64,000 nucleotides of DNA, from positions 224,360 to 288,359 of the forward strand of contig JAJXYN010000009.1 in the NCBI GenBank assembly GCA_021780535.1, written 5' to 3'. The notes under the pieces were generated by a model. The model did no database searches and was not told where the DNA came from. It was given only the letters and a program-made list of their open reading frames with translations. Position 1 is the stretch's first letter. Each line of letters begins with the position of its first letter. Of this stretch, positions 46,205 to 63,637 are shown piece by piece. A program made the position numbers and the translations under genes. Origin of the DNA: a bacterium (GTDB lineage Bacteria; Patescibacteriota; Patescibacteriia; JAGPKW01).

Positions 46205-47827
46205 ATGATAAAAGAAAATAGAAATTTAAAATATGCTATATATCTTCGTAAATCAACTGATAGTGAAGATAGACAAGTTCAGTCAATAGAAGACCAAGAA
46301 AAAGAAATAAATATTTTAGTAGAAAGAGAAGGAATTAAAAAAGAAAATATAATAGAAATCTTCAAAGAAAGTAAATCTGCCAAAAAACCTGGGAGAGAAG
46401 AATTCAATAGAATGATGTGTTTAATAAAAGAAGGCAAAATTGATAGTGTTATGTGTTGGAAATTAAATCGTTTAGCAAGAAATCCTATCGATGGTGGCGA
46501 AATTCAATGGTTACTACAACAAAATATAATTAAATCAATATTAACAAATGAAAGAGAATACCTTCCAACTGACAATGTTCTTATGATGGCAGTTGAATTG
46601 GGAATGGCAAATCAATTTGTATTAGACTTAAGTAAAGATGTTAAAAGAGGAATGAGGGGTAAAGTAGAAAAAGGCTGGAGACCAATGAGAGCTCCCATTG
46701 GATATATAAACGACAAAGCTGGTAATAAAGGAGAGAAAAAGATTTTTAGAGATGAAACTAGATTTGATATAGTGAGAAAGTGTTGGGAGCTTTTATTTAC
46801 AAGAAAATATACAGTACCAGAAATTACAGAAATAGCTAATGAAACATATGGTTTAAGAGACTATAAAGGTGAGAAAATAAATAATAGCACCTTTTATAAG
46901 ATATTTAGAAATACTTTTTATTATGGAGAGTTTAGTTATTGTGGCGAAGTGTATCAAGGAAAACACGAACCAATGATAACAAAAACAGAATTTGAATACG
47001 CTCAAGATATTTTAAGTGGTAGTAAACATAATAAAAGACCAAAAACAAAAAATCTCCCATACAATGGAATTATTACTTGTGGCGAATGTGGCTGTTATAT
47101 TACATCAGAAGAGAAAATAAAATATGTTAAGTCAGAAAATAAAGTCAAAAATTATGTATATAATAAATGTTGTAGTAATAATAGATGTTTTAAATGTTCT
47201 CAGAAGCCAATAAAATATGAAGAATTGTCTGAACAAGTTAAAAAATACCTAGAAACAATAAAGATAACTGATAAATTTTTTAATTTTGCCCTAATGGTTT
47301 TCAAAGAAAGAAATATGGTAGAAGAAGAAAATAGAAATAGTATCATAAGAAACTTACAATCAAATCATACGGAGGTTATAAAAAAGATAGATAACTTAAT
47401 AAATTTATTTGTATCTCAAAATAATCAAAATAGAGAGCTTTTAAGTGAAGATGAATATATTTCTCAAAAATCATTTCTTGCTAAAGAAAAAATAAGAATA
47501 GAACAACAAATAAAGGATATTATGGAAGAAACATCAACTCAAGATAAAAGATTTGATGACGAAATAAACTTTGTTCATACAGAAATAGAAATGTTTGATA
47601 ATGGGAGTTATGAAAAAAGAACTCAAATATTAAGAAAAATGGGAGAAAGCTTTATTTTAAAGGATGGAATGCTTGATATACAATTAAAAAAAGTATTTCT
47701 AACATTCACTACTTACCAGTCAGAGTATAAAAAGAGAGAAATAGAACTAAGCAATATAAGAAATTTCAGCGAATTTAAAACAAAAAAAGAAGCTGATGCT
47801 TCTTTTCGTTCTATCTGGAGCGGGTAA
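46205..47827 (+). CDS. Large serine recombinase (integrase)
   Basis: N-terminal resolvase domain (AIYLRKSTDSEDRQ…LNRLARN), recombinase domain and Cys-rich zinc ribbon (CGECGCYIT…C…C). 540 aa. Confidence 0.85.
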   Translation: MIKENRNLKYAIYLRKSTDSEDRQVQSIEDQEKEINILVEREGIKKENIIEIFKESKSAKKPGREEFNRMMCLIKEGKIDSVMCWKLNRLARNPIDGGEIQWLLQQNIIKSILTNEREYLPTDNVLMMAVELGMANQFVLDLSKDVKRGMRGKVEKGWRPMRAPIGYINDKAGNKGEKKIFRDETRFDIVRKCWELLFTRKYTVPEITEIANETYGLRDYKGEKINNSTFYKIFRNTFYYGEFSYCGEVYQGKHEPMITKTEFEYAQDILSGSKHNKRPKTKNLPYNGIITCGECGCYITSEEKIKYVKSENKVKNYVYNKCCSNNRCFKCSQKPIKYEELSEQVKKYLETIKITDKFFNFALMVFKERNMVEEENRNSIIRNLQSNHTEVIKKIDNLINLFVSQNNQNRELLSEDEYISQKSFLAKEKIRIEQQIKDIMEETSTQDKRFDDEINFVHTEIEMFDNGSYEKRTQILRKMGESFILKDGMLDIQLKKVFLTFTTYQSEYKKREIELSNIRNFSEFKTKKEADASFRSIWSG

Positions 47828-47890
47828 GGAGAATCGGACTCCCCTCTTCAGCTTGGAAGGCTGACATAATAGCCACTATACGATACCCGC
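47816..47890 (-). tRNA. tRNA-Gly (anticodon TCC), CCA encoded, with an atypical T-loop (C at position 55)
   Basis: Reverse complement GCGGGTATCGTATAGTGGCTATTATGTCAGCCTTCCAAGCTGAAGAGGGGAGTCCGATTCTCCTTACCCGCTCCA. 7-bp acceptor stem and anticodon stem TCAGC/GCTGA. The 3' 12 nt overlap the recombinase stop. Confidence 0.65.
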
Positions 47891-48822: not shown

Positions 48823-49707
48823 ATGAATTTTATATTTAACGCCTTTTCTAACCTATTCAAACTTATTGAATGGATATTAAAAAAAACATACAAAATCATT
48901 AGGGTTTTAGGATTTTTTGTTTTTACTTTTGTTTTTTTGATTTTTGGATGGATTATATTTTTTCTTATATATAAACTACTTATAGCTAGAATATTAAAAA
49001 ATAAAGAAACTAGAATTGTTAATAAATTTTTTTATGATTGCATAGTATTTTTTATAAAATCTTTTTTAGATACATTTGTGGAAGTGAAAATATGGGGCAA
49101 AAAAAATATATCAAAAGATACTTCAAAGTTATTTATATCAAATCATTTTTCTTCTACTGATCCTTTATTTATGTTTGGTTTTATAAAAGATAGAATCCAT
49201 ATGGTTATTGGACCAGCCTATGATATTCCTGTATTAAAAAATTTTTTAAGAGTACTTGAACAAATAGATGCTACAGAAAATAATAGAAAAAATGTTGTTT
49301 CTAATTCTATAGAATATATAAAAAGAAATGAATCTGTATATATATTTCCAGAAGGAGACTTAAACAACCAACAAGATTTTTTAAATTTTTATCATGGTGC
49401 TGCTAAGATATATATAGAATCTAATGGTATTGCACCAATAATTCCAATAGGGATAGTTGCATCTAAAAAAGATGTTAAAGAATTTAAATTATTTAATATA
49501 AAATCTAAAAAAAATAATAAAACATATAAAAGTTTAAATGTTTTATCTGGTAGATATCTTATTAATATTGGTGAACCTTTAGAATTTCAAGAACTTTTGA
49601 ATAGTGATAAATCTTATGAAGATAAATGTAATCAAATAACTACATTTATAAAAAAATATGTTAAGGAGCTTGTTGATGAAGCTAAATTTGATAAATTTTG
49701 GAATTAA
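48823..49707 (+). CDS. 1-acyl-sn-glycerol-3-phosphate acyltransferase family (PlsC-like)
   Basis: ISNHFSSTDP (H-x4-D) and FPEGDL acyltransferase motifs. N-terminal transmembrane helix. Confidence 0.75.
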   Translation: MNFIFNAFSNLFKLIEWILKKTYKIIRVLGFFVFTFVFLIFGWIIFFLIYKLLIARILKNKETRIVNKFFYDCIVFFIKSFLDTFVEVKIWGKKNISKDTSKLFISNHFSSTDPLFMFGFIKDRIHMVIGPAYDIPVLKNFLRVLEQIDATENNRKNVVSNSIEYIKRNESVYIFPEGDLNNQQDFLNFYHGAAKIYIESNGIAPIIPIGIVASKKDVKEFKLFNIKSKKNNKTYKSLNVLSGRYLINIGEPLEFQELLNSDKSYEDKCNQITTFIKKYVKELVDEAKFDKFWN

Positions 49708-50198
49708 TTCAAATAAATATTTTCTTTATTTGAATCTGATAATATATTTGTTCCCTTTCCATCTGCAGCTAATATTAGGCTTTTATTGAATACTAATTCT
49801 GTTGTTTTTATTTCTTGATTCTTTATTTTAAATTTCATAGTAAATAACTCCCCTTTCCCTACAAATCCATCTGTTGAACCCCCCGCAAAATATATATATC
49901 CTTTAGAATTTGAATACCTTGGGGATTTCATCCAAAGATTAAAGATAGAATTATTATAATATTCTATTCCCACTATTTCCAAATCTTTATTATTAAAATT
50001 TATAGTTGATTGCCCAGCATTAACTATAGAACTTGAATTTACGTTTAACGAAACTTCTATAATTCCTTTTTTTTCATTAATACTTTGATTTAAATAAAAA
50101 TTAGCACTTTCAGCGTTTGCAATATTACAAAATAACAATCCAAACATAAATGGAATAGCTAAAAACAATATATTATTAGATATTGTTATTTTTTTCAT
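49704..50198 (-). CDS. Secreted beta-rich protein, paralog of the N-terminal domain encoded at 50176..51204 (cohesin-like candidate)
   Basis: Signal peptide. LWMKSPRYSNSKGYIYFAGGSTDGF aligns with FWVKSPRIQGNKIFFSGITPGGF of its neighbour. Confidence 0.4.
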   Translation of the reverse strand: MKKITISNNILFLAIPFMFGLLFCNIANAESANFYLNQSINEKKGIIEVSLNVNSSSIVNAGQSTINFNNKDLEIVGIEYYNNSIFNLWMKSPRYSNSKGYIYFAGGSTDGFVGKGELFTMKFKIKNQEIKTTELVFNKSLILAADGKGTNILSDSNKENIYLN

Positions 50199-51204
50199 TT
50201 TTTAATTTATTTCTTCTATTTAAATACGCATTTAGAAGTATTAACACAAAAACTATAAAAAGTAAAGAGATAATTATAACATTATAATTAATAACTGCTT
50301 TTTTTTCATTAATTATAAATGGCCCTATTTTTTCAATTCTATAATTACCAGCTAAATCAACAGCCTTTACTTGTATTTCTTTTGTTAAATCTTGAAATTG
50401 TAATACATAAGGACTTTCTGCTCTTTTAAATGCTTCATCACCTTCTTTAACTTCATAATAATCTATTCCTGAATCTTTATCTTGTGCATTAAATATTATA
50501 GAAAATTTTCCATTACCTATTTTACTATCTTTTATTATTTTTACCGTAAATTCTTCTGGTCTTGTTGTATCTTCTGGATTAACTTTATCTGTGTTGTTAA
50601 TAGAATTATCAATCGGTTTATCTACTACTGGCGTTTGATTATTTACTGGCTGGTTATCAGTATTAGTTGGTGGATTTGCTGTATTATCTTTATTCGTTAC
50701 TGGCTGATTATTATTAGATGAATTGTTATTTGTATTTACAATTTCTAATAATAAATTTTTTATTTTAAATTTATCCTCTGTTGCATTACCATCATTCAAT
50801 AAAAATTTACTATTACTATCTATTTCTATACTTGTGATGCCTGGCTGCTTTGCAACAAATAAAGCAGAGAATATTTTTCCATTTTCTCCATTAAAGCCAC
50901 CTGGTGTTATCCCTGAAAAAAATATTTTATTACCTTGTATTCTTGGACTTTTTACCCAAAAAGCCACAGTAGAGTTACCTTTATAAATTTTTTGTAATTC
51001 TAAAAAATTACTATCAAAAGATAAAGACGATTCAAAAGCATTTATATTAGAGTTTTCTGTATTTATTAAAAAATCTACTCTAAAAACCTCACTAGTTGAA
51101 AGTTTATTACTTGTGGAATTTAAATAAACTGTTGAAGCATTAACATTAAACCCCAACAAAAAAATTGCAAATATAAGTGTTTGTAAAATAATTTTTTTTA
51201 TCAT
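50176..51204 (-). CDS. Two-domain secreted protein with an Asn/Pro/Thr-rich linker and a C-terminal transmembrane anchor (scaffoldin-like candidate)
   Basis: Signal peptide. Domain 1 is homologous to the protein encoded at 49704. NQPVTNKDNTANPPTNTDNQPV linker. C-terminal hydrophobic helix plus basic tail. Confidence 0.4.
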   Translation of the reverse strand: MIKKIILQTLIFAIFLLGFNVNASTVYLNSTSNKLSTSEVFRVDFLINTENSNINAFESSLSFDSNFLELQKIYKGNSTVAFWVKSPRIQGNKIFFSGITPGGFNGENGKIFSALFVAKQPGITSIEIDSNSKFLLNDGNATEDKFKIKNLLLEIVNTNNNSSNNNQPVTNKDNTANPPTNTDNQPVNNQTPVVDKPIDNSINNTDKVNPEDTTRPEEFTVKIIKDSKIGNGKFSIIFNAQDKDSGIDYYEVKEGDEAFKRAESPYVLQFQDLTKEIQVKAVDLAGNYRIEKIGPFIINEKKAVINYNVIIISLLFIVFVLILLNAYLNRRNKLKNEKNNNI

Positions 51205-51212
51205 TTGTTTGA

Positions 51213-52199
51213 TTAATCACCTGTCCAATTATATGCCATTATAGAAAAATCTTTAATATCTATAATACCATCATTATTAAAATCTCCTTCTTTATAGTCA
51301 CTAGCTAACCAATGGAACAAAAGTATTGAAAAATCTATTAAATCAACATTACCATCTCCATTTAAATCACACTTTACCTTATAGTTATTATAATTTTCTG
51401 AATTTTTAATTTTATCATTTGAAATTAATATATTAATATCAATATTTTTACTTGAACCCACAATAGTATCGCTTAATAAATTTTTTGAATATAAAACATA
51501 ATTACCTTCTAATAAATCCTTTGTGTCAAATTGATATATATAATACCCTTGTTTGTTTGTTTTTATGGTATTTAATATTTTTTCTGTATTATCTTTTTTG
51601 TTTTGTAAGAATATTTGAACATCTGATTCTGATAAACCATAGCCATCTATATTAATATTCTCTCCTTTTTTAACTTCATTTACACTAGAGCTGATAGTTG
51701 GGGAAACATAAACATCTGTTACGGATATATAACTTCCCGGATTTAAGCTAACATTGAAATTTACTAAATTTGTTGTTGTTTTATTTTTAGTTTCTGACGT
51801 AACACTAAAAGAATAATCACCATGATAAAAACCATATATACTTTGAGAAAAATTCCCATTATCATCTGATTTAGCATATATTAAAATTTTTCCATCTTTT
51901 AAAATTTTAATTTTTGCATTAGGGATTGTCCTTCCTTGTATAAATATTACAGAGGAAGCAAGATTAACTTTTGAATGAGGCCCTTCATTATCATCTGTTG
52001 GGGATGTACAATCTGGATCTGCTGGATAATCAATTAGACCATCTCCATCATTATCTCTTCCATCCATACATTGTGGTACATATATTATTTTTAATGAAAA
52101 TTGTGGATTTGCTGCAAATGTTTGCTTATTAAAAAACAATGAGATTATAAAAATAATCAATGATGTTGTAAAAAAATTAAAAAATTTTTTATTAACCAT
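51213..52199 (-). CDS. Secreted dockerin-domain protein
   Basis: Two Ca-binding dockerin repeats (DLNGDGNVDLIDFSILL and DFNNDGIIDIKDFSIMA) at the C-terminus. N-terminal DNDGDGLIDYPADPDC. Signal peptide. Confidence 0.65.
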   Translation of the reverse strand: MVNKKFFNFFTTSLIIFIISLFFNKQTFAANPQFSLKIIYVPQCMDGRDNDGDGLIDYPADPDCTSPTDDNEGPHSKVNLASSVIFIQGRTIPNAKIKILKDGKILIYAKSDDNGNFSQSIYGFYHGDYSFSVTSETKNKTTTNLVNFNVSLNPGSYISVTDVYVSPTISSSVNEVKKGENINIDGYGLSESDVQIFLQNKKDNTEKILNTIKTNKQGYYIYQFDTKDLLEGNYVLYSKNLLSDTIVGSSKNIDINILISNDKIKNSENYNNYKVKCDLNGDGNVDLIDFSILLFHWLASDYKEGDFNNDGIIDIKDFSIMAYNWTGD

Positions 52200-52287
52200 C
52201 TTAATTTATACCTTAATTTAAATTAATATTTTATCTGTTAATTATATCATTTTAGATTTTTTATTTATAATAATTATCCACAAAAAT

Positions 52288-52314
52288 AAATATCACGCGA
52301 AGTGCGTGATATTT
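52288..52314 (-). terminator. Terminator of the giant surface protein gene
   Basis: Perfect 11-bp hairpin aaatatcacgc-gaagt-gcgtgatattt, 10 nt after the stop. Confidence 0.55.
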
Positions 52315-52324
52315 ATAAGAAAAA

Positions 52325-55300
52325 TCAATTACCTATTACTGTAAGTGTCATATTTATTGAATACTCTCCACTTCTCTGACTTGCTGGAATTGATTGTAAT
52401 ATTGATACACCCATAATATCCCAATAAGAATTTGTTTGAGTTGCCGATGAAGATGACGCTATAGTAAGTGAATTTTGAGTGCCCTCAATAAAAGATGATG
52501 GACTTGAAAGAACTATACCCGTTGAAGTACCTCCTGGTTTTGGTGTGATAGAGGCAAATGAAGGATCTATAGACATTTGCCCACCTATAGTGTCCGGATC
52601 TGGTCCATCTTTTGCATCTGGTGTGGGGTCATTAAAATCATAACTATCTGTTCCGTCTGACCAAAAAGCAGTTTCTCCATATGATGCTGATAATGATACT
52701 GTCCATAAAGGATTAGCTGTTGAATTTGTTATTCTAATTTTTTGATTATCAAATCCAAATATACCTTGAGAACTTGAACTTGAATAACTAAATGTCCTTG
52801 GGTCCAAACTAAATATTGGATTCGTTATGGAATTTCCATTATTATCCACTATATCTATTGATAAAACACCAGATACTATAGAAACTTCTGGATAATTTGA
52901 GTATGTTTGTATATCTGTACCATCCACATTTACAACTTTAAAACAAAATGTTTTTCCTACCCCTGCATTATTATCAAATAAAGCAAAGTCCCATTTACCA
53001 TATTCTCCTATATTTAAATCACTCATGGAATTTGAAAAATCTCCGATTTCATTATATGTTTGATTTTTAATAGTAGCACCAATTTCATAAGGATCAGAAA
53101 GATTGCTTGTTAAAGCTACTCCACTGGAAACACTTGGATTATCTTTTAGCGCTATTGCCGTTGTCCTTGTTAAAACTGAATATGGGTATTGTGGATTACT
53201 ACATGTACCTGTCCCTTTTTCTGCAAATTGTAATTTAAAAAATCCTTCGTTTTGTAATATTTTGTTTTTAGAAACAGACATTAATAATCTTAATCTAAAA
53301 TCAGACAATGGTTCAATAGATCCTGCTATGTTTTGTTCTGCTATTCCATTTCCAACATCTGACGAATCTGTGTTTTTAAATAGTTTATAAGAGGCTAGAT
53401 TATAATATGGGCTTGTATTAACTGAAACCATAGGATAATTAGTATAATTATCTAATACTTCACCAGTAGATTTAACTAATCTAAAATAATAATTATTACC
53501 TGTAGCGTTTTTAGGGATTAAAGAAAAATCATATTCTCCAACATCATTATTTAATAAATTATTTATATTATTTATTGTTGGATTTTGTTCTGAATAAGAT
53601 TCTTTTTTTGTTGATGTAGATAATAATGTATTACCTATAACACTATCTGAATTAACTAAATTATTATCATAAAATTCCCATTCCTGATTTAAACCAACAC
53701 CATTCCAAGGACCTACTAATGATTTTGAATACTGTAAGACAAATGAAGTAGAGCTTGCTTTAAGTTCTGATAAATTATTTTTTATATTTATTCTTAATCT
53801 TAGTGGATTATTTTTTGAATCAGACAACCCTACTTGATTTTCATTAGCTATTGCCGTTACTGGGTCTATTGCATTTGTATTTGAATACCATCTATAAGAA
53901 TTTTGTGTTAAAGAATTCCCTATAGTTAATTTGGCATAATTTAAATATTCTTCAAAATCAGATCCTTCTGCTCTTATTAATTTAAAATAATATGTTGATT
54001 TTTCTGCGTTTTTTGAATTTAAAGGAAAATCATATTCTCCAGACTGATCTACTTGAATTATGTTTGGATTCAAATCTATTGGGTTTACTTCTGAATACAA
54101 TTCACCAACATTAGAATTAGACAATAACATTTGTGATATTATTGCTGATTGATTTATATTAACCGAATCATAAAATTCCCAGTCTTCTTTAGTCTCAACC
54201 GTATTTAAAGATGTTGTGGGACCGACAGAAACTAATTTAATTAATTTAAAATAATTAAATTTTCCGACCGACAAAATATCCCCACCATTAGATAAAACAT
54301 AAATACCCACATCTTGAACATTAGAAGCATTTGCTATTGTCACGGAATTCATTGCTGAAAAATTTATGCAGTCAATAGAATATGTTGCAGTAAAAACTGT
54401 CCCTTGTTTTTTAATTCTCAAACAATGCGGCCAGGTTGGAGTAACTGTTGGCGAATATAATGTATCTAAATAACCATTATTATTACTATCCCAAGCTGAA
54501 AGAAATGCTGTATTAATATTATCAACATTAACAAAATACCCATTATTTGGTTGTGTTTTTGTAATATCATTTTTAACCATAAGACCCATATTTTCTGAAG
54601 GACTTACATTATCCTGAGAAATACATCTTAAAGTAGCCTCAAAATCTCCATCTATATTATCTTGGTACACTGTTGAATAATCATCTACTGGAGTAACACC
54701 CGTAGCTTCCCATGTATCAACACCTCCAGAATTTATATTTAATGTACCATTTGATTCTGAAAAACTTGTTCCAGAAACTTTATCATTATCAAACGTTTTC
54801 CAATCTGATCTTATTGCCCCACCACTAAAATCATCATAAACTGCATATATATTATTTAAATTTGTTGGTGGGTTTACTGCATTTGGATTACCATAATACA
54901 CATAATAGTCACCTGTTGTTGATGAATTTGTATTTACTGCAATGTCAGACATGAGTCTAAATTGTATATTAGAAGATGTAGAAAACCAATTATCTGCTAT
55001 TCTGTCTAATTCATAATTTTCACCAGTACTTTTTTGAAAAACTACTCTAATATCATCACCACTTGTTTGAGCAATTTGTGTGTTCATTGTGAATGACACC
55101 GTTAGTCCACTTGGCAGTAATGAGTGACTTGTCCCAAAATTTATCTTTTGTCTTTTTGAATAATAATTATTCCACCATTTTGCACCAACACTAGGATTTG
55201 AAACTGTTTTCCATGGACCATTTATACTCATTTTTGAATATTGTAAAATGAAACCTTTTGAAGTAAGTGCTTCATTTTTTGCTTGAACGTTTAATCTTAA

Positions 55301-57235
55301 TCTTGCTAAATCATTTTCATTTATAAAAGATTCTGAATTTTCTTGAGCTAATGAAATTGTTGGTGTTATTAGATCATTGTTTGCATACCATCTGTAATAG
55401 TTTTGAACCAAATGACTTCCAACCAACATTTCTGGATAATTTAAATAGCTACTCAATTCTTTATTATCTGTTGCATTAAATAATCTCAAACAATAATCAC
55501 CATCCAAAATGGTGCTAGAAATTTTAATACTATATTCTAGTTCCGTGTATCCATTGTTTAATAAAGCTATTTGACTACTAGTATTTGTTGTATCCATACC
55601 TCTGCCTGATGTAAATGTGTATGCTTCTGGATTATCAAATATTGGCAACGTTAAATCTTGATCTATATATTGGGTTGAATCTGACATAACAATATTTGAA
55701 GCATCTGGTATATCTTTCCATGTTGTAGTGCTTAAACAACTACCCCCCGTTTTTGACCCATATTGTATTTTTAAACCTTTACCAGCTGTTGTATCTGATT
55801 CTCCAGTATTTGAAATTGCAAATCTAATTCTATAATTTATATTTTTTGTTATTAATGGTGGGTTTTCATTATAATTCGTTGTTAACCAACCATTGTTATC
55901 ATTTAATGCTTTTGTATCATCTCTCCATTTGTATTTATATTGATTCAATGTTGGTTGTGGCGTGTATTGTATATTTTTAAAATTAAGACCTTGAGCCCAT
56001 GTTGCAAAATTATAACTAGTCCCTGTTGGATAATATTCTCTTTGCAATGTGATTGTTGTATTTGCAGAATATCTAGATGAAAAAATACCAGCTGGATAAT
56101 TATTTGTATTATTATTCATACTTGAATAAGCCGTTGACATTCTACAAGTTGTATTTGGATTTGATGTGGTTGTTATAGCAGCAGTTTTAGAACCACCCCC
56201 AGAATTTGTTTTAAATTTATAATCTACTGATAAATTTGGATGGCTAAATACATATATATCAAATGATTTAATTGCTCCTGATATTTGAGAGCCCATGGCT
56301 ACTGTTGTTTCTGATGTATTTTGTGCAACCCCATTTCCTAGCGTTATTATTGTACCGAGTGAACCATTACCAAGTGCTGCTGCTTGTGAATATCCAGATC
56401 CGTACACCCAAGTATTAGCTCTTGTGGCTGAAGATATTGTTGCTGTATTATATGCTGCCGTTGTATTTGAACCACTTGCACCATTTGAACCAGATATAGC
56501 AACTCTTTGCACATTCCAAGCACTTCCCCACTCTATCGCGTAAACAGTACTTGTTGCTAATGACAAAATACCATCATTATTACTATTATATCTTTCCCAA
56601 TTTATCGTATTTGTCCCTGTTGGATAAAGTCTTAGCCAACCTGCATTATAATAACCAGAATTTGCGGCGCTATCTTCTATATTTGTTCCAGAACCTAACC
56701 CCCCACCAAATATAGAAACTTTATTAATATTAGTCCATGGGGTAATGGAAGATGTTGTTCCTGACTGTAATCTAGTTGTTGTATTTGTATATCTTGGAGT
56801 TGATAAATCTAATATATCTAATGTCTTAAATCCATTATTTGTACAATCAACTAAACACTCAACTACTGTCACCACACCAACCCAACTTGATGAACCTACT
56901 GCATATCTTTTTAGTTCTACCGATGTTGTACTTCCTGTTGTTGGTAAACTTTTATTTGCTCCTAATGGTAATTTTGATATTTTTACATAACTGTTTGTGG
57001 GACTTTTTATGACATTCCCACTTTCAGCTCCTCGTATTAGAATAAAATGATCTGGAGATAATGGATTATTTAAAGTCAAATTATATGTAGTGCCAGTAAA
57101 ACCTGTTGTTATATTATATTCTGTAACTCTAAAAACATCACTAGCAGAGACATTACGTGATACAAAAAAACAACCTAAAACAAGGCTTCCTAATAAAACT
57201 TTTTTAAAAATATTCCCCAAACTCCTTGGATTCAT
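52325..57235 (-). CDS. Giant (1636 aa) Thr/Ser/Asn-rich secreted surface protein with four internal repeat modules and a WxL-like C-terminal domain
   Basis: Signal peptide. Repeats sharing NYP…YRWY…RLRL…LQYS. The C-terminal roughly 110 aa are homologous to the C-terminus of the 210-aa protein encoded at 58714 (GQMSIDPS…YWDIMGVSILQSIPA…EYSINMTLTV). Confidence 0.7.
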   Translation of the reverse strand: MNPRSLGNIFKKVLLGSLVLGCFFVSRNVSASDVFRVTEYNITTGFTGTTYNLTLNNPLSPDHFILIRGAESGNVIKSPTNSYVKISKLPLGANKSLPTTGSTTSVELKRYAVGSSSWVGVVTVVECLVDCTNNGFKTLDILDLSTPRYTNTTTRLQSGTTSSITPWTNINKVSIFGGGLGSGTNIEDSAANSGYYNAGWLRLYPTGTNTINWERYNSNNDGILSLATSTVYAIEWGSAWNVQRVAISGSNGASGSNTTAAYNTATISSATRANTWVYGSGYSQAAALGNGSLGTIITLGNGVAQNTSETTVAMGSQISGAIKSFDIYVFSHPNLSVDYKFKTNSGGGSKTAAITTTSNPNTTCRMSTAYSSMNNNTNNYPAGIFSSRYSANTTITLQREYYPTGTSYNFATWAQGLNFKNIQYTPQPTLNQYKYKWRDDTKALNDNNGWLTTNYNENPPLITKNINYRIRFAISNTGESDTTAGKGLKIQYGSKTGGSCLSTTTWKDIPDASNIVMSDSTQYIDQDLTLPIFDNPEAYTFTSGRGMDTTNTSSQIALLNNGYTELEYSIKISSTILDGDYCLRLFNATDNKELSSYLNYPEMLVGSHLVQNYYRWYANNDLITPTISLAQENSESFINENDLARLRLNVQAKNEALTSKGFILQYSKMSINGPWKTVSNPSVGAKWWNNYYSKRQKINFGTSHSLLPSGLTVSFTMNTQIAQTSGDDIRVVFQKSTGENYELDRIADNWFSTSSNIQFRLMSDIAVNTNSSTTGDYYVYYGNPNAVNPPTNLNNIYAVYDDFSGGAIRSDWKTFDNDKVSGTSFSESNGTLNINSGGVDTWEATGVTPVDDYSTVYQDNIDGDFEATLRCISQDNVSPSENMGLMVKNDITKTQPNNGYFVNVDNINTAFLSAWDSNNNGYLDTLYSPTVTPTWPHCLRIKKQGTVFTATYSIDCINFSAMNSVTIANASNVQDVGIYVLSNGGDILSVGKFNYFKLIKLVSVGPTTSLNTVETKEDWEFYDSVNINQSAIISQMLLSNSNVGELYSEVNPIDLNPNIIQVDQSGEYDFPLNSKNAEKSTYYFKLIRAEGSDFEEYLNYAKLTIGNSLTQNSYRWYSNTNAIDPVTAIANENQVGLSDSKNNPLRLRINIKNNLSELKASSTSFVLQYSKSLVGPWNGVGLNQEWEFYDNNLVNSDSVIGNTLLSTSTKKESYSEQNPTINNINNLLNNDVGEYDFSLIPKNATGNNYYFRLVKSTGEVLDNYTNYPMVSVNTSPYYNLASYKLFKNTDSSDVGNGIAEQNIAGSIEPLSDFRLRLLMSVSKNKILQNEGFFKLQFAEKGTGTCSNPQYPYSVLTRTTAIALKDNPSVSSGVALTSNLSDPYEIGATIKNQTYNEIGDFSNSMSDLNIGEYGKWDFALFDNNAGVGKTFCFKVVNVDGTDIQTYSNYPEVSIVSGVLSIDIVDNNGNSITNPIFSLDPRTFSYSSSSSQGIFGFDNQKIRITNSTANPLWTVSLSASYGETAFWSDGTDSYDFNDPTPDAKDGPDPDTIGGQMSIDPSFASITPKPGGTSTGIVLSSPSSFIEGTQNSLTIASSSSATQTNSYWDIMGVSILQSIPASQRSGEYSINMTLTVIGN

Positions 57236-57352
57236 TAAAATATTTTATAATTTATTAATAATATTATAGCATAAATAAATAAATAATATATATACACAAA
57301 AACATAAAAAAGAGACTACTATCTAAAAGTAAACCTCTTTTTTTAATTTAAA

Positions 57353-58597
57353 TTATTTAGTTTTTTTCTTTTTTGTTAATTTCTTTTTTGGTGAAGTTAT
57401 TGATTTAACTTTATTTATCATAGAAATTCTTTTTTTATTATAATCTTCCTCTAGATCATCTGGTACTTTAATTTCGTCTTTTGAATCTACCATATATGGC
57501 GCTTTTATTTTGTTAACACTTGCTAACAATTTCCAATTAACTTCATATTTCTCTGCTAATACTTTTATATTTGTAGCTCTTGCAACTGTATGTTTTTTCC
57601 ATGTTCCTATCCAATTTTGTCTTTTCTTCCATATAGACAAAAGATAGATATTAAATGTTATAAATAATAATATAATAATTTCAAACATTAAACCTTTTGC
57701 TGTTGGAAATGAAAAAAATGATATTTCTTTTTCCGATTCTAATATTTTTAATTTGCTTTCATCTTTTAGATCTCCTTTAATGTTTGGATTATATTTTGCC
57801 ACTAATCTAGCTGTATAAAATCCTCCCCAAAAAGGTTTTGGTAATTCAAAATTCCAAACCGATGTTTCTCCTCTCAATACAATAAATTCTCCACCTACTG
57901 TTTTATGAGTTATTCCTAATATATTTTTTACGATTACATTTACATCTGTATTCACTGAAACATTACCACTATTTTTGATTGATGAATTAAACACAAAAGA
58001 TCCATCTTGTTTATTTGATATTTCAAATTTACCCAAAGATATTTTTTTAATCAAATCACCTGGAATTGTTATAGAAACCCTTACCCCGGTTCTTATAGAT
58101 AATTGTATTCCTGATTTTTTATTATTTTTATCAACTGTATCATCTTTTTTTTCTTGAATTAAAAAACATCCATCATGTTCACCAGAATCTGTTTTGGCTG
58201 GAATAGAAATTGTAAAAGGTATAATTTCATTTGTTCCGGGATCTAATTCTACTTCATTTTTATCTAACTTAATCCAAGATCCTACTTCTATCTTGTTTTC
58301 ACCAAATTGCTTACAAGCAAAGCCACCATCTGTTGATGATACGGAATCAGCTGCATATACTGAAAATGTTTTTTTAACTTTTGTGTTATTAATCACCATT
58401 AGACCATCTCTTTTACTTGAACCTAAATCTATATCATATGAAAAAGCGCTATCACTTTTTCTAACTGTTCCATTTTCTAAATCTGCTGGCCTTAATCCAA
58501 AACCACCATATTCAAAGGCTTTTACTGTTGGTATTAAAAAACTAGAAACAAGAAAAACCAATAAAAACGACGATGTTAAATACCTTTTATTTATCAT
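57353..58597 (-). CDS. Cell-surface protein with a C-terminal transmembrane anchor (CscA/DUF916-like candidate) followed by a LysM-like tail
   Basis: Signal peptide, beta-rich ectodomain, transmembrane helix (IIILLFITFNIYLLSIW), then HTVARATNIKVLAEKYEVNWKLLASVNKIKAPYMVDSKDEIKVP (LysM pattern) and a poly-Lys end. Confidence 0.45.
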   Translation of the reverse strand: MINKRYLTSSFLLVFLVSSFLIPTVKAFEYGGFGLRPADLENGTVRKSDSAFSYDIDLGSSKRDGLMVINNTKVKKTFSVYAADSVSSTDGGFACKQFGENKIEVGSWIKLDKNEVELDPGTNEIIPFTISIPAKTDSGEHDGCFLIQEKKDDTVDKNNKKSGIQLSIRTGVRVSITIPGDLIKKISLGKFEISNKQDGSFVFNSSIKNSGNVSVNTDVNVIVKNILGITHKTVGGEFIVLRGETSVWNFELPKPFWGGFYTARLVAKYNPNIKGDLKDESKLKILESEKEISFFSFPTAKGLMFEIIILLFITFNIYLLSIWKKRQNWIGTWKKHTVARATNIKVLAEKYEVNWKLLASVNKIKAPYMVDSKDEIKVPDDLEEDYNKKRISMINKVKSITSPKKKLTKKKKTK

Positions 58598-58713
58598 AAT
58601 TTAATTTAATTACTAAATAATAATATAAGAAATATTGATTATAATTATATCATGAATATATTTTTTAGAAAACAAAAAAGAATGGTTTAAACACCATTCT
58701 TTTTAATAAATAA

Positions 58714-59346
58714 TTATTTAGCAACAACTGAAATTGTCATTGGTAAAGAATAATCTGCTGCTGTTTGCATAGCTGGGATTGTTTGTGTTAATGCAACACC
58801 TTGCAACGTCCAATCTCCAATTTTAGCAGAAGTAGCATCAGCATCTAATAATGTAATAGAAGCTACAGTTGAAGAAAAATTACTTGCTGAACCTTTTACA
58901 ACGCCTGTATTTGCAGCTGTTGATTTACCATGAGTCAATACTCCAACTGAAGGATCAATTGCTAATTGACCACTAGTAGCTACATCATTTTTATAATCAA
59001 AATTAACAGTATTACCAGCGTCTTGCCATTTTGCAGCAGTTGCAGCTATTGATGTTGTCCAACCATTAGGAGCAGCATCAGGGTTTGATACTAAAATTTG
59101 CTGTGTTGGAGAACCTAAAGTAGCTGTAGAAGTTTCAGATACCATGCTTGCAGTAACAGGAGCAAAGGCAATAGCAGGAGCAGCTATCGTAGCATAAGTA
59201 CCATCCACAATATCAACCGCTAAAGTACCTGGATTAATTTTTAAAGTAAATTGAGCCATATTAGAAGCAAGAACAACTCCAGCAACTAATACCATTCCTG
59301 TCATAGCTAAAGCAGGAATACTTATTTTTCTAAATGATTTTGACAT
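58714..59346 (-). CDS. WxL-domain-like small surface protein (CscB-like)
   Basis: Signal peptide. Ala/Thr-rich. The C-terminus carries WTTSI and DWTLQGVALTQTIPA…DYSLPMTISVV, a two-motif WxL-type domain shared with the giant protein. Confidence 0.5.
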   Translation of the reverse strand: MSKSFRKISIPALAMTGMVLVAGVVLASNMAQFTLKINPGTLAVDIVDGTYATIAAPAIAFAPVTASMVSETSTATLGSPTQQILVSNPDAAPNGWTTSIAATAAKWQDAGNTVNFDYKNDVATSGQLAIDPSVGVLTHGKSTAANTGVVKGSASNFSSTVASITLLDADATSAKIGDWTLQGVALTQTIPAMQTAADYSLPMTISVVAK

Positions 59347-60603: not shown

Positions 60604-62376
60604 TTATTTTTTAATAGAATATTGCTTTCCGAATAATAAATCATTGTATATAATTGAGAAATTTGAAAGTTGGGATGTTGATAAAATAGAATTAAAAGAA
60701 TTTGATAATTTTACATACTCTGGTGTTGTTTTATCCACATATAATGGTCTAATATTATTTAATTCTTCTATATTAAATAAATCTAACAATGTATCTTTTG
60801 TTTCTACTCCTATTTTATTTAATATTTGTTCCCCAAATCTAAACATGTTTACATGCCCAACATTTTCTATTTTATTTTTATTGATGAATATTAATGGCGT
60901 TGAATGAAGAGTTAATTCATTTAATGTGTTTGTTTTTTTATAAACTTCTTGATTCATTCCTAAAAATGGTAAATGATCACCTGTTATTATTATTATAGAA
61001 TTTTGATCATTTTTTCTTATTTTATCAACAAATTCTGAAATTTCTTTTGTTGAATAATAAATGGAATTTGAATAATTATTTATCCAATCATTGTTTATAT
61101 TATTTGTTATAATGTGTGGCCTTTTGCTATTTAATGAATATGGTATATGTGTTGACAATGTCATATAATAATTAAATTTTGGTTTACTATTATTATTATT
61201 TTTATTAGCTAGATCATATGCTTGATTTAAAAATGATTGATCTGATAATTTACCATCATTAAGATCGTCCATATTAAAATCATTTAAAGAAAAATAATTT
61301 TTAAATCCTATTTTTTTATAAGCATTTGTTCTATTAAAAAAATTCGCATAATCTGGGTGAAATGCATTTGTTTCGTACCCTAATTCCGACAATATGTTTG
61401 GAAGGCATGCTAAATTATTTTTTAACTCAGTCTGGAATACTACACTATTATTTAAAACTGGAATGCCACACAATAATTCAAACTCTGGATCAGCTGTCTT
61501 ACCTTCAAACGTTGGGCTTACTAAAAAATTATCTTTGGATTGATTTCTTAAATCTCTAAAATCTTTATAAAAAGGATCTTGAGAATAACTTGAATTATTT
61601 AATAATTTCGGATCCCACAATGACTCCACTAAAATAAAATAAATATTTGGAAGTGGCTTTAAAGAAGAAGCAATTGTAGATGAAAATGGATAAGAAGATA
61701 AAATTTTATTTTTACCAATAGAATTTAACGCATCCTCTACTGTTTGTTGTTTTGGAATTTCTTTTTTATTATCTGATCTTATGTATTGGTCTATAAAATA
61801 CATAAACGGTCCTTCGTGTTTATAATTTTCTTGTTGATTCCAAAATAAATATGACACATCTGCTTTATTTATTATAGAATCATACTGCTTTGAAAATATA
61901 TTTAAAGAAATTATAAACAACATTAATATTATAAATAATACCAATCCTGATTTTCTAAATTTAAAATTTAAAATTAATACGAGTACTATTATAGATAAAG
62001 CAATAATTATAAGTACTACAAATATTGGGTTAATCATCCATATAGCTATTATCGCTTCTTTTGCTGAAAATACATCATCCATTATTATTGGTGCTCCAAA
62101 AAAAGCAGTTTTTATTGAGTCTGATACTTGTATAGTAAGTAATATTATAAATTGTATTATTAAAAATATATTTATTTTTTTAGAAAATAAAAATAATATA
62201 TAGCTGATAAATACAAAAAAAATAATATCTGAGATTATATATATTGAACTTAATAAATTTAATTTAAAAAAAATAATATTTATTAAATTTATTATTATAT
62301 AAAAAAATATTCCAGAGATTATTGGTGTAAAATAGAATATTTTTGTTTTAATTATTTCTAAATTTATTTTATTCAT
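60604..62376 (-). CDS. LtaS-like sulfatase-family membrane phosphotransferase (lipoteichoic acid synthase family)
   Basis: 5 N-terminal transmembrane helices and an extracellular alkaline-phosphatase-superfamily domain (ILVESLWDP, FEGKTADPEFELLCGIP, GDHLPF). Confidence 0.75.
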   Translation of the reverse strand: MNKINLEIIKTKIFYFTPIISGIFFYIIINLINIIFFKLNLLSSIYIISDIIFFVFISYILFLFSKKINIFLIIQFIILLTIQVSDSIKTAFFGAPIIMDDVFSAKEAIIAIWMINPIFVVLIIIALSIIVLVLILNFKFRKSGLVLFIILMLFIISLNIFSKQYDSIINKADVSYLFWNQQENYKHEGPFMYFIDQYIRSDNKKEIPKQQTVEDALNSIGKNKILSSYPFSSTIASSLKPLPNIYFILVESLWDPKLLNNSSYSQDPFYKDFRDLRNQSKDNFLVSPTFEGKTADPEFELLCGIPVLNNSVVFQTELKNNLACLPNILSELGYETNAFHPDYANFFNRTNAYKKIGFKNYFSLNDFNMDDLNDGKLSDQSFLNQAYDLANKNNNNSKPKFNYYMTLSTHIPYSLNSKRPHIITNNINNDWINNYSNSIYYSTKEISEFVDKIRKNDQNSIIIITGDHLPFLGMNQEVYKKTNTLNELTLHSTPLIFINKNKIENVGHVNMFRFGEQILNKIGVETKDTLLDLFNIEELNNIRPLYVDKTTPEYVKLSNSFNSILSTSQLSNFSIIYNDLLFGKQYSIKK

Positions 62377-62486: not shown

Positions 62487-63014
62487 TTATCCTGCTATTA
62501 CTGTAATTTGTTTTATAACAAAGTCTGTAATTGCATAGGCCGCAGCTATAATAGCTATACCAATCATTCCTGATGTCATAAGCTTTCTTGCTGAACCAAT
62601 TTTTGTTGGATCTCCTTTTGAAATCATCCATTGTATTCCACCCCAAATAATGAAAATAAGAGCTACAGTTCCAGATATTCCAAGTATTACTTTAATAACA
62701 TTTCCTATTATTACTGGAACAGATGTTGTTGTATTTAATCCACCAGAACCAGCTAATGATGCTGCCGAATTAGTAGAACCTGATGTATTTAAGTTGTCAT
62801 ATTTAGAAACAGCTGAACAAGTAGCGGCACCAGTATCAGTAGCGCATGTACAAGAAAAACCCGTACCAGAAGTTACACAAGTTGTTGTACTACCAGATCC
62901 ACAATTACCCGCGCTTGATCCACATGTTACCGTATCTGCAAACACAGATGATGTTGACATTACTAGCACTGAAAATATCGCAATAAATATTGAGCTTAAT
63001 AAAAATTTTTTCAT
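62487..63014 (-). CDS. Small secreted/membrane protein with VirB2/TrbC-like topology, copy A (Cys/Thr/Gly-rich variable ectodomain)
   Basis: Signal peptide. Variable region CGSSAGNCGSGSTTTCVTSG…. The conserved C-terminal two-helix core VPVIIGNVIKVILGISGTVALIFIIWGGIQWMISKGDPTKIGSARKLMTSGMIGIAIIAAAYAITDFV is identical to copy B. Confidence 0.45.
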   Translation of the reverse strand: MKKFLLSSIFIAIFSVLVMSTSSVFADTVTCGSSAGNCGSGSTTTCVTSGTGFSCTCATDTGAATCSAVSKYDNLNTSGSTNSAASLAGSGGLNTTTSVPVIIGNVIKVILGISGTVALIFIIWGGIQWMISKGDPTKIGSARKLMTSGMIGIAIIAAAYAITDFVIKQITVIAG

Positions 63015-63298
63015 TTTGATTAGTTAAAAAATTATTTAATTTTTGTTATTTTTATATTTTATCACAAAAAAATAAAATATGGAAATATTGACACATGGGG
63101 ATATGTTAACTACCCTGCTATTACTGTAATTTGTTTTATAACAAAGTCTGTAATTGCATAGGCCGCAGCTATAATAGCTATACCAATCATTCCTGATGTC
63201 ATAAGCTTTCTTGCTGAACCAATTTTTGTTGGATCTCCTTTTGAAATCATCCATTGTATTCCACCCCAAATAATGAAAATAAGAGCTACAGTTCCAGA
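62490..63298 (-). repeat. Direct repeat: the 3' roughly 185 nt of the two tandem pilin-like genes are nucleotide-identical (62490-62675 and 63113-63298)
   Basis: Read directly: ctgctattactgtaatttgttttataacaaagtctg…gagctacagttccaga is the same in both copies. Upstream parts diverge completely. Confidence 0.8.
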
Positions 63299-63637
63299 CA
63301 CACCAAGTATTACTTTTATTACTGAGCCTATTATTGCTGGAACAGAAGTACTAGAAAGACCTGCTTGATCACTAACTGTTTCTAGTCCTGCTCCAAATGG
63401 CTTTTTGCAAGAACAACTTCCAAGAGCACCATCTCTTGAACACATTGTACCACCAGTACAATCATCACCACATAAACTTCCCTTATCTGAAGGAATTGTT
63501 CCCGTTTGGTCAATTACGCAACCACCCGCCGCATAAGCACATGCTGCACAGACTGATGCATTAACTTTATTATTACTTACGAAAATAATAATAATTGTAA
63601 AAACACTCACAAACAATAACTTAAATATATTTTTCAT
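63110..63637 (-). CDS. Small secreted/membrane protein with VirB2/TrbC-like topology, copy B
   Basis: Signal peptide. Different Cys-rich ectodomain (CAACAYAAGGCVIDQTG…CGDDCTGGTMCSRDGALGSCSCKK). Identical C-terminal core. Confidence 0.45.
   Translation of the reverse strand: MKNIFKLLFVSVFTIIIIFVSNNKVNASVCAACAYAAGGCVIDQTGTIPSDKGSLCGDDCTGGTMCSRDGALGSCSCKKPFGAGLETVSDQAGLSSTSVPAIIGSVIKVILGVSGTVALIFIIWGGIQWMISKGDPTKIGSARKLMTSGMIGIAIIAAAYAITDFVIKQITVIAG

Follow-up and report, generated by a model that had tools for sequence, protein, structure and literature searches.

A three-gene cluster on the minus strand of a 64-kb stretch of Patescibacteria DNA (the whole stretch analysed, hereafter the window) raises the question of whether an ultra-small bacterium of this group holds proteins at its surface through a cohesin-dockerin interaction, as a sequence-only reading of the locus had proposed. 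Patescibacteria (CPR) account for much of bacterial diversity and live mostly attached to other cells; to our knowledge, the proteins with which they build their surfaces and make contact are largely unknown. Few protein-protein interactions lend themselves, as cohesin-dockerin binding does, to prediction from sequence and to testing with simple recombinant fragments, and the cassette therefore offers a testable handle on CPR surface architecture. What that reading observed in the sequence holds, and its interpretation is largely supported. We put at roughly 70% the probability that this gene cluster specifies a non-cellulosomal module for surface display through cohesin and dockerin in a monoderm cell of the Patescibacteria type. 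A literature search found no publication describing the cassette.

Gene layout and transcription

The ORF list places three co-directional genes on the minus strand, with the coordinates and orientation that had been proposed for them:

52286-52316, minus strand: terminator-like hairpin with a 13-bp stem and a T run (consensus match only)
51213-52199, minus strand: doc328, encoding a 328-aa secreted protein (ORF; AF2 model, pLDDT 86.7)
50176-51204, minus strand: anch342, encoding a 342-aa membrane-anchored cohesin protein (ORF; AF2 model, pLDDT 87.3)
49704-50198, minus strand: coh164, encoding a 164-aa secreted cohesin-only protein (Pfam PF00963; paralogy to anch342)

The genes are tightly packed, with an 8-nt gap between doc328 and anch342 and a 23-nt overlap between anch342 and coh164, and all three products (3/3) carry a hydrophobic signal-like segment at the N-terminus. 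The terminator-like hairpin lies between the stop of the preceding gene, which encodes a 1636-aa protein, and the start of doc328, a position which suggests that the trio forms its own transcription unit. No other dockerin or cohesin was found elsewhere within the 64-kb window. Domain searches of the cassette and its neighbours returned no glycoside hydrolase, CAZyme or CBM, in agreement with the earlier observation that the locus lacks a glycoside hydrolase.

The dockerin-bearing protein

Behind its signal peptide, the product of doc328 has an acidic double-disulfide repeat and two Ig-like (Big_6-type) domains, from which a short linker leads to the dockerin at the C-terminus:

52113-52199, minus strand: signal peptide, residues 1-29, ending in QTFA with A as the next residue (hydrophobic at residues 5-23; model helix 4-22)
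52002-52073, minus strand: acidic double-disulfide (thrombospondin-type-3-like) Ca-binding repeat, residues 43-66, CMDGRDNDGDGLIDYPADPDC (NF033662)
51420-51959, minus strand: two tandem Ig-like beta-sandwich domains, the cargo, residues ~81-260 (model, Foldseek, Big_6)
51216-51374, minus strand: dockerin module, residues 276-328 (Ca-loop motifs, helices, PDB profile)

Its N-terminal signal-like segment marks doc328 as a predicted exported protein, with a putative cleavage site after QTFA. The acidic repeat scored 24.6 bits against NCBIfam NF033662, under the cutoff of 41, and gave many short, high-identity matches among unrelated secreted proteins. The strands of the Ig-like domains (E83-E258) were modelled at pLDDT 89-98, and the Big_6 match, weak in doc328 itself, was strong in its homologues (36/42). 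When the whole doc328 chain was compared with the PDB by Foldseek, tandem FN3/Ig modules were retrieved; the Ig domains dominate such a search, and the 50-residue dockerin is not addressed by it.

The sequence-only reading had assigned two dockerin Ca-binding repeats to the C-terminus of the 328-aa protein, and this assignment stands: neither repeat lacks any of the five ligands. The 22-residue repeats begin at D278 (nt 51368; DLNGDGNVDLID) and D306 (nt 51284; DFNNDGIIDIKD) and are identical at 10 of 22 residues; each has a 12-residue Ca loop with D/N/D/D/D at positions 1, 3, 5, 9 and 12 that continues into DFSI and a helix, and the helices (residues 287-295 and 315-326) were modelled at pLDDT 91-98. 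A six-frame scan of ORFs of at least 60 aa found the dockerin Ca-loop motif just these two times in 64 kb, and chance is thereby excluded. Against Pfam Dockerin_1 (PF00404), doc328 scored 16.5 bits, under the gathering score of 22.9, while 34 of 42 full-length homologues matched the family at E<=0.01 (best 1.5e-8) and the ortholog at locus L034 reached 44.1 bits. A profile of the dockerin module (A4) retrieved solved dockerins from the PDB sequences (2y3n_B, E 1.9e-7; 5nrm_B, 6.6e-6; 1daq, 3.5e-5); the top 14 matches were all dockerins, ranked before any EF-hand protein, and the alignments cover both repeats. By sequence, then, doc328 ends in a real, type-I-like dockerin. One could instead see here generic EF-hand-type Ca motifs and generic Ig-like sandwiches whose likeness to cohesin and dockerin is superficial, given that these proteins themselves score marginally in Pfam or not at all and that EF-hand families also match the doc328 C-terminus weakly. 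This reading is disfavoured, and we regard it as exceedingly improbable.

Two paralogous cohesins, one of them membrane-anchored

The two genes downstream of doc328 had been described as encoding secreted paralogs with a common beta-rich domain, and the two products indeed align over ~150 aa at 32% identity (E 3e-11). Their parts are as follows:

50737-51135, minus strand: anch342 cohesin domain, residues 24-156
50569-50736, minus strand: anch342 Asn/Thr/Pro-rich flexible linker, residues 157-212 (pLDDT 44-53)
50317-50568, minus strand: anch342 membrane-proximal Ig-like (OmpL47-type barrel-like) domain, residues 213-296 (NF047446)
50230-50289, minus strand: anch342 C-terminal TM helix, residues ~306-325, followed by the basic tail AYLNRRNKLKNEKNNNI (Kyte-Doolittle, model)
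49722-50102, minus strand: coh164 cohesin, residues ~33-159, preceded by a signal peptide at residues 1-29

That the shared domain would have a cohesin fold was borne out by the structural comparison: it is a nine-stranded flattened beta-sandwich (jelly-roll) that superimposes on solved cohesins, with which the cassette cohesins share only 9-19% sequence identity, and the non-cohesin fold that would have refuted the proposal was not obtained. Foldseek of anch342 gave 2w1n as the top match (E 4.4e-10), over both the cohesin and the Ig-like domain. At the sequence level, coh164 scored 25.4 bits against Pfam Cohesin PF00963, over the gathering score of 24.1 (E 1.8e-5), orthologs of the third gene scored 30.9-31.9 bits, and coh164 matched the cohesin HMM of the family at E 2.9e-20. 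Pfam gave no match for anch342 itself, and Cohesin was matched in 11 of 78 family members (best 3.8e-9). Searches of PDB sequences were less informative: phmmer with coh164 returned only noise, and the A1 profile matched a cohesin only at E 0.0019.

In anch342 the order is signal peptide, cohesin, N/T/P linker, Ig-like domain, TM helix and basic tail, which matches the arrangement of linker, second domain and C-terminal anchor that had been claimed for the larger neighbour. The linker holds 18 N, 7 T and 7 P in 56 residues, is modelled below pLDDT 55 throughout, and is much shorter in most homologues. The second, Ig-like beta domain scored 28 bits against NCBIfam NF047446, under the cutoff of 40, and its motifs SGIDYYEVKEG and VKAVDxAGN are strongly conserved. 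The hydrophobic helix was located at residues 302-320 by Kyte-Doolittle analysis and at 307-339 in the AF2 model, and a C-terminal TM segment is retained in 77 of 80 orthologs. Thus, anch342 is a type-I membrane protein that carries its cohesin on a flexible linker above an Ig-like domain. The anchor family comprises at least 3,573 clusters at 50% identity (E<=1e-30). A cluster look-up returned no public name for any of the three cassette proteins.

The product of coh164, by comparison, is an exported cohesin without an anchor, a shortened form of the cassette's third gene. Short-form orthologs have 152-161 aa at 66-73% identity; elsewhere the third gene encodes a protein of ~580 aa with a TM segment (present in 68/75) and a cytoplasmic tail of ~93 aa.

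Conservation across Patescibacteria

Conservation was assessed in a set of 80 related Patescibacteria loci, taken at species level. A cohesin ORF follows within 600 nt on the same strand after 70 of the 71 dockerin ORFs in these loci, and of the 70 loci with room for a doc328 homologue ahead of the anchor gene, 65 have one immediately before it. Nearly all of the 80 loci have the genes in the order dockerin, cohesin-TM anchor, second cohesin, exactly two cohesin genes being present in 70, and this order is kept across more than 15 named candidate lineages. Each of the 171 cohesin ORFs (171/171) carries a single cohesin, and no protein has both a cohesin and a dockerin. At one locus (L074) there is a second, diverged cassette, again with a dockerin-only match and two cohesin genes. 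Gene order and strand are preserved in many lineages, and the trio is a cassette both widespread and conserved in Patescibacteria.

Are the neighbouring cohesins the partners of the dockerin?

We infer physical contact between cohesin and dockerin from genomic adjacency, which is the one line of evidence bearing on it, and by analogy with known pairs the putative pair is probably located at the cell surface and probably Ca dependent. Neither of two in-silico tests for coupling showed a signal specific to dockerin and cohesin. Mirror-tree/partial-Mantel analysis of the dockerin against each cohesin yielded r values of 0.08 and 0.16 (p 0.14 and 0.05); the Big_6 control gave the stronger correlation, and the analysis is uninformative. 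A change from E to A/G/Q in the beta6 motif of the cohesin encoded by the third gene tracks the class of dockerin helix 1 ('AAY' vs 'LL[FY]'), and the two 'LL' dockerin groups are not sister clades. Class-tracking cohesin columns were rejected as interface evidence, since they amounted to 10 of 131 as against 13 of 169 in the Big_6 control.

The lack of a coupling signal would fit a reading in which the modules are genuine and the neighbouring cohesins are nevertheless not the dockerin's partners, the genes being co-located only as envelope genes. The dockerin would then bind another genomic cohesin, a host-surface component or a glycan, and the cohesin-like domains would be independent adhesin or ligand-binding beta-sandwiches. 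Consistent with this, nearly every locus has two cohesins per dockerin, leaving at least one without an obvious dedicated partner, and a cultivated Saccharibacterium has an essential dockerin protein, SEML1_0315, that has no cohesin neighbour (PMC10633639) and for which its authors proposed glycan targeting (PMC10633639). We nonetheless consider the non-partner explanation unlikely, because a cohesin gene comes right after the dockerin gene in nearly all of the cases counted above, in divergent lineages, because adjacency so strict and so old is typical of genes whose products interact physically, and because the window offers no further dockerin or cohesin. SEML1_0315 itself (Southlakia, 927 aa; PMC10633639) was considered as a cassette ortholog and rejected, its neighbours being unrelated.

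If the neighbouring cohesins are the partners, as we prefer, the cassette might work as follows. When Ca2+ is present, the pair of EF-hand-like loops would, by analogy, fold the doc328 dockerin; its helices would then bind the flat face of the cohesin in anch342 and so tether the Ig-like protein at the cell surface. The internally duplicated dockerin may alternatively, or by a second face, engage the third-gene cohesin. Because most relatives have another membrane protein as their third-gene product, the dockerin protein may connect two membrane anchors or select one of them; in the window's lineage this product is reduced to a free cohesin, which could act as a cap or as a competitor. With no catalytic domain in the cargo, an adhesive or structural role (envelope organisation or host contact) is likely.

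Comparison with known cohesin-dockerin systems

The cassette does not have the makeup of a cellulosome and shows no tie to cellulose degradation: its dockerin protein carries only Ig-like domains, its cohesins occur singly and it has neither CAZyme nor CBM; together with the TM anchor, this domain content fits the non-cellulosomal surface assembly that the sequence-only reading had envisaged. Non-cellulosomal cohesin and dockerin modules have reportedly been surveyed across the three domains of life by Peer et al. in 2009. Relative to the Archaeoglobus fulgidus cohesin (PDB 2xdh) and other non-cellulosomal pairs, the cassette differs in that its modules lie on separate proteins, encoded by a fixed set of three genes that an entire radiation has kept and that has a TM-anchored cohesin among its products. 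Cell-surface scaffoldins of Clostridium (Acetivibrio) thermocellum such as OlpA and OlpC (3ul4, 4dh2) offer a comparison for the anchor, which here is a C-terminal TM helix and not an SLH or sortase-dependent one; the cargo, moreover, consists of Ig-like domains instead of enzymes or scaffoldin, and there is no CBM or multi-cohesin scaffoldin. The cohesin-FN3 module of Clostridium perfringens GH84C (2w1n, 2o4e) resembles anch342 in having an Ig/FN3-type domain behind its cohesin and a setting outside cellulosomes. The C. perfringens modules, however, are attached to large secreted glycoside hydrolases, whereas the cassette has no catalytic domain and its cohesin is membrane-anchored. The cassette extends the cohesin-dockerin principle to a TM-anchored cohesin, enzyme-free cargo and a constant 1:2 ratio of dockerin to cohesins, and its extremely conserved dockerin (DFSI...YWTG) could serve biotechnology as an orthogonal affinity pair.

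WxL-like genes upstream of the cassette

The genes upstream of the cassette bring in a different kind of surface system:

52325-57235, minus strand: 1636-aa secreted giant protein, its C-terminal 180 aa homologous to p210
57353-58597, minus strand: 414-aa WxLIP-like membrane protein (WxLIP_PGBD/DUF916 and TM at residues 301-319; PF06030)
58714-59346: 210-aa protein (p210), small partner of the 1636-aa giant

The 414-aa protein scored 30.7 bits against PF06030, over the gathering score of 27.3, and the C-terminal 180 aa of the giant align with p210 at 31% identity (E 1e-19, BLASTP); p210 contains 'DWTL'. WxL clusters resemble these genes in combining a small secreted protein that is homologous to the C-terminus of a large one with a PF06030-TM protein, and differ from them in their Pfam WxL domain, which, even at E<=10, gave no match to the C-terminal domain common to p210 and the giant in 7 members of that family. 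Firmicutes account for more than 91% of known WxL proteins (PMC9772566), and a term search of that WxL-cluster paper (PMC9772566) found no mention of cohesin or dockerin. An iterated HMM detected a WxLIP-like homologue in 43 of the 80 loci, mostly ~2 kb upstream of the anchor gene, the usual place of these orthologs being right before the dockerin gene. Upstream of the cassette, 7-13 of the 80 loci have homologues of the C-terminal domain seen in giant and p210.

These genes admit the explanation that the trio is subsidiary to a WxL/Csc-type cell-wall complex, in which the WxLIP-like protein would drive assembly by inserting itself into WxL-like domains, those of p210 and the giant, and cohesin, Ig and dockerin would be passive spacers or Ca-stabilised elements. 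The upstream genes, with their small/large homologous pair and DUF916/WxLIP_PGBD-TM protein, do have the layout of a WxL cluster (PMC9772566, PMC10599100), and the position of the WxLIP-like gene directly upstream of the dockerin gene in those 43 loci points the same way. Against this, WxL-like proteins occur in only 7 of the 80 loci compared with a near-universal cohesin-dockerin triad, the Pfam WxL domain is not detectable as noted above, profile-profile comparison found no WxL-like domain in the long third-gene products, and the terminator-like hairpin stands between the giant gene and the trio. We judge this explanation to be a slim prospect, distinctly less probable than non-partner cohesins. 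The candidate WxL-like domain in the long third-gene products was rejected at an hhalign probability of 0.1%.

A cohesin-dockerin module in its own right, which remains our preferred reading, may nevertheless have a connection to the gene upstream, in that the cargo may act together with the WxLIP-like membrane protein. A wider, tentative version of this reading, for which we see less than even odds, combines the WxLIP-like protein, the Ig-dockerin protein and two TM-anchored cohesins in a four-gene envelope module that would occur in much of the Patescibacteria and have the trio as its local copy; in it, one internally duplicated dockerin would bridge or switch between two cohesins in the service of envelope organisation or host contact, possibly with transmembrane signalling. 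If true, this would be a cohesin-dockerin device for envelope or host contact and not for enzyme assembly, and a module previously undescribed. In the four-gene reading the first cohesin anchor is short-tailed, while the second has a coiled-coil-like cytoplasmic tail of ~93 aa. The membrane-proximal Ig-like domain of anch342 also recurs in giant proteins, which carry up to 31 copies of it.

Organization of the Trio and Its Cohesin Domains

Three minus-strand genes form a real cohesin-dockerin module that has strong support from genomic context, with binding between the partners predicted. They encode a dockerin-bearing protein (doc328), a membrane-anchored cohesin protein (anch342) and a cohesin-only protein (coh164), and are spaced by an 8-nt gap and then a 23-nt overlap in a window of ~25% G+C; two public MAG assemblies contain the same locus.

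52286-52316, minus strand: terminator-like hairpin (terminator-like sequence) between the 1636-aa gene and doc328
51213-52199, minus strand: doc328 gene (ORF, 328 aa)
50176-51204, minus strand: anch342 gene (ORF, 342 aa)
49704-50198, minus strand: coh164 gene (ORF, 164 aa)

Each of the three products (3/3) begins with a hydrophobic signal-like segment. The sequence-only reading had described two secreted paralogs, the larger with the layout of an anchored protein, and both descriptions held: anch342 and coh164 carry signal-like segments and align over ~150 residues (32% identity, E 3e-11), and in anch342 the shared domain is followed by a linker of 56 residues rich in N, T and P (pLDDT about 45-53), then by another beta domain, and finally by a hydrophobic helix and basic tail at the C-terminus. 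The shared domain is a cohesin, as had been proposed. coh164 exceeds the Pfam Cohesin gathering score (25.4 bits vs 24.1), and the AlphaFold2 model of anch342, for which a 78-sequence alignment served as input, is confident (pLDDT 87.3 overall; 83-98, mostly >92, in the cohesin domain). Pfam Cohesin is matched by 11 of 78 anch342 relatives (best 3.8e-9) and not by anch342 itself, and some relatives carry the NCBI name "cohesin domain-containing protein". Against PDB sequences the family profile found R. flavefaciens ScaB Coh3 with weak significance (E 0.0019), and the family therefore represents a divergent cohesin branch.

The Dockerin of doc328

The C-terminus of doc328 (DLNGDGNVDLID...DFNNDGIIDIKD) contains the two Ca-binding repeats that had been recognized there, each loop having a full ligand set (D, N, D, D, D at positions 1, 3, 5, 9 and 12) and being followed by DFSI and a helix; AlphaFold2 modelled the region as loop-helix, loop-helix with pLDDT 91-98. 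A six-frame scan of the 64 kb detected no further loops of this type. Judged by sequence comparison, the evidence for a dockerin is much stronger at the family level than for doc328 alone, which scored 16.5 bits against Pfam Dockerin_1, below the threshold of 22.9. Among 42 full-length homologues, by comparison, Dockerin_1 was matched in 34 and Big_6 in 36, and the ortholog in a Parcubacteria genome (locus L034) reached 44.1 bits for Dockerin_1. The family consensus is DLNxDxxVNLVDFSIxAYWYKR...DLNxDGKVDLVDFSIMAYYWTG. When a profile built from 32 C-termini was compared with PDB sequences, the best 14 matches were all dockerins, with both repeats aligned in 2y3n_B (1.9e-7), 5nrm_B (6.6e-6) and CelS 1daq (3.5e-5); EF-hand proteins began at E >0.04.

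The remainder of doc328 comprises an acidic double-disulfide Ca repeat (weak match) and two Ig-like domains; the protein lacks a catalytic domain. The acidic repeat (residues 43-66, window 52002-52073; CxDGxDNDGDGxxDxxxDPDC) is also present, at 60-85% identity, in numerous secreted but otherwise unrelated proteins of Deltaproteobacteria, archaea and other groups, and is a mobile Ca-binding mini-module.

Conservation across Patescibacteria

Relatives of anch342 were sought in one genome per GTDB species; 373 species were positive, and 80 loci were retrieved. Their record titles, a few of which bear evidently automatic labels, name Niyogi-, Doudna-, Falkow-, Nomura-, Kaiser-, Komeili-, Wolfe-, Lipton-, Taylor-, Colwell-, Zambryski- and Magasanikbacteria as well as Peribacteraceae, Paceibacterota and Minisyncoccota. 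Gene order is conserved throughout this range: ORF-level searches placed a doc328 homologue immediately upstream of the anchor gene in 65 of 70 loci with room for one, and another cohesin gene immediately downstream of it in 74/80; a cohesin ORF comes no more than 600 nt after 70 of the 71 dockerin ORFs, on the same strand. The C-terminal transmembrane segment is kept in 77/80 anchors, exactly two cohesin genes are present in 70/80 loci, and every one of 171 cohesin ORFs carries a single cohesin domain and none a dockerin. No conserved neighbours were found among the window genes downstream of the trio (36-49.7 kb). Searching 1.84 billion representative proteins exhaustively with the anchor-family profile yielded 11,293 matches at E<=1e-3 and at least 3,573 at E<=1e-30, mostly of about 290-310 aa, the length of the anchor architecture.

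Some genomes have a further cassette of a dockerin and two cohesins, or three to five single-cohesin genes in a row (L074:12324-15283; L057:11434-15931; L061:8855-13583), and the system has thus expanded in certain lineages. The Ig-like domain that lies next to the membrane in the anchor (profile positions about 170-252) is repeated in up to 31 tandem copies in giant metagenomic proteins (P0220, 4269 aa; P0221; P0222). In some anchor homologues (P0015, P0092 and L005:7623-8897) a PF05635/PF22296 '23S rRNA intervening sequence protein' four-helix bundle is annotated before the signal peptide, which may reflect a genuine gene fusion or an artefact of gene calling.

The gene in the coh164 position typically encodes 570-610 aa in relatives (e.g., L034:8852-10600 and L021:8801-10615), the long product consisting, from N to C terminus, of a cohesin, a Y_Y_Y-like domain, an anchor-type Ig-like domain, a Big_13-type domain, a transmembrane segment, and a cytoplasmic tail of ~93 residues that is strongly charged and probably helical. 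A transmembrane segment C-terminal to the cohesin occurs in 68 of 75 such products. Besides the window, cohesin-only versions were found in L004, which is closest to it (161 aa), and in two relatives from metagenomes (152 aa, 66-73% identity); in the window's lineage all parts C-terminal to this cohesin have been lost. Because all four of these diverged sequences retain an intact ORF, the short gene is probably functional and not a remnant.

Proposed Mechanism and Comparison with Known Systems

In cohesin-dockerin pairs generally, the helices of a Ca-folded dockerin pack against a single sheet of the cohesin, and internal symmetry is common among dockerins. On this basis, anch342 most likely tethers doc328 outside the cytoplasmic membrane, holding it on the outer face of the membrane of a monoderm cell, with the linker acting as a spacer between membrane and cohesin. 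A further socket for this dockerin would be offered by coh164, or in relatives by the long membrane-anchored form. Binding would be Ca-dependent, and the assembly at the cell surface may have an adhesive or structural role. Mirror-tree analysis gave no specific signal of dockerin-cohesin co-evolution (partial correlations r 0.08 and 0.16). Alignment columns tracking dockerin helix class were considered as an interface signal and rejected, being as frequent in the Big_6 control, the Ig-like domain of the dockerin protein, as in the cohesins.

The cassette would work like a minimal version of an anchoring-scaffoldin/dockerin pair. In agreement with the non-cellulosomal assignment made from the sequence, it lacks CAZymes and CBMs and its proteins carry no more than one cohesin each, which places it outside the definition of a cellulosome; it belongs with the non-cellulosomal cohesin-dockerin systems of A. 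fulgidus and C. perfringens. Unlike these, it combines transmembrane anchoring with an enzyme-free Ig-like cargo, and it is a fixed triad of one dockerin and two cohesins associated with a WxLIP-like protein. Full-text searches for cohesin or dockerin in Patescibacteria, CPR or Parcubacteria, with subscription journals outside their coverage, returned no published description of the cassette. For a cultivated Saccharibacterium, one dockerin protein is reported to be essential (PMC10633639); it is a different protein, without cohesin neighbours, and was rejected as a cassette member. The significance of the cassette lies mainly in its very wide conservation in a poorly understood radiation, and it is readily testable.

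Upstream WxL-Like Genes and Other Genes of the Window

Upstream of the trio, window 52325-59346 (minus strand) has a WxL-operon-like layout consisting of a 210-aa secreted protein (p210), the 1636-aa secreted giant and a membrane protein.

58714-59346, minus strand: p210 (210 aa); the final 180 residues of the 1636-aa giant are homologous to it (E 1e-19)
57353-58597, minus strand: 414-aa WxLIP-like protein with Pfam WxLIP_PGBD/DUF916 (30.7 vs 27.3 bits) and a transmembrane segment

To our knowledge, Bacilli account for nearly all other WxL clusters. p210 contains "DWTL"; the C-terminal domain shared by p210 and the giant had no match to the Pfam WxL domain. By iterated HMM search the WxLIP-like gene is present in 43/80 loci, and in 35/50 where the upstream flank exceeds 4 kb, usually as the dockerin gene's immediate upstream neighbour, whereas a WxL-like domain occurs near the cassette in only 7 of 80; the conserved core is therefore four genes. 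In the window, the giant gene sits between the first and second of these.

A 540-aa large serine recombinase (Resolvase, Recombinase and Zn ribbon; window 46205-47890, plus strand) abuts tRNA-Gly(tcc) (47816-47890, minus strand). This juxtaposition of a serine recombinase gene and a tRNA gene is a typical mark of integrated mobile elements, and the plus-strand gene block at ~41.5-47.8 kb may be one. Two tandem 175-aa genes (62487-63014 and 63110-63637, minus strand) match the type IV secretion system pilin family PF18895 (TrbC/VirB2-like), in keeping with reports of a monoderm-type T4SS in Patescibacteria. A 590-aa protein (60604-62376, minus strand) carries a Sulfatase-family domain in its C-terminal half (PF00884, E 1.4e-33) and may be an envelope enzyme of the LtaS-like or phosphoethanolamine-transferase type.
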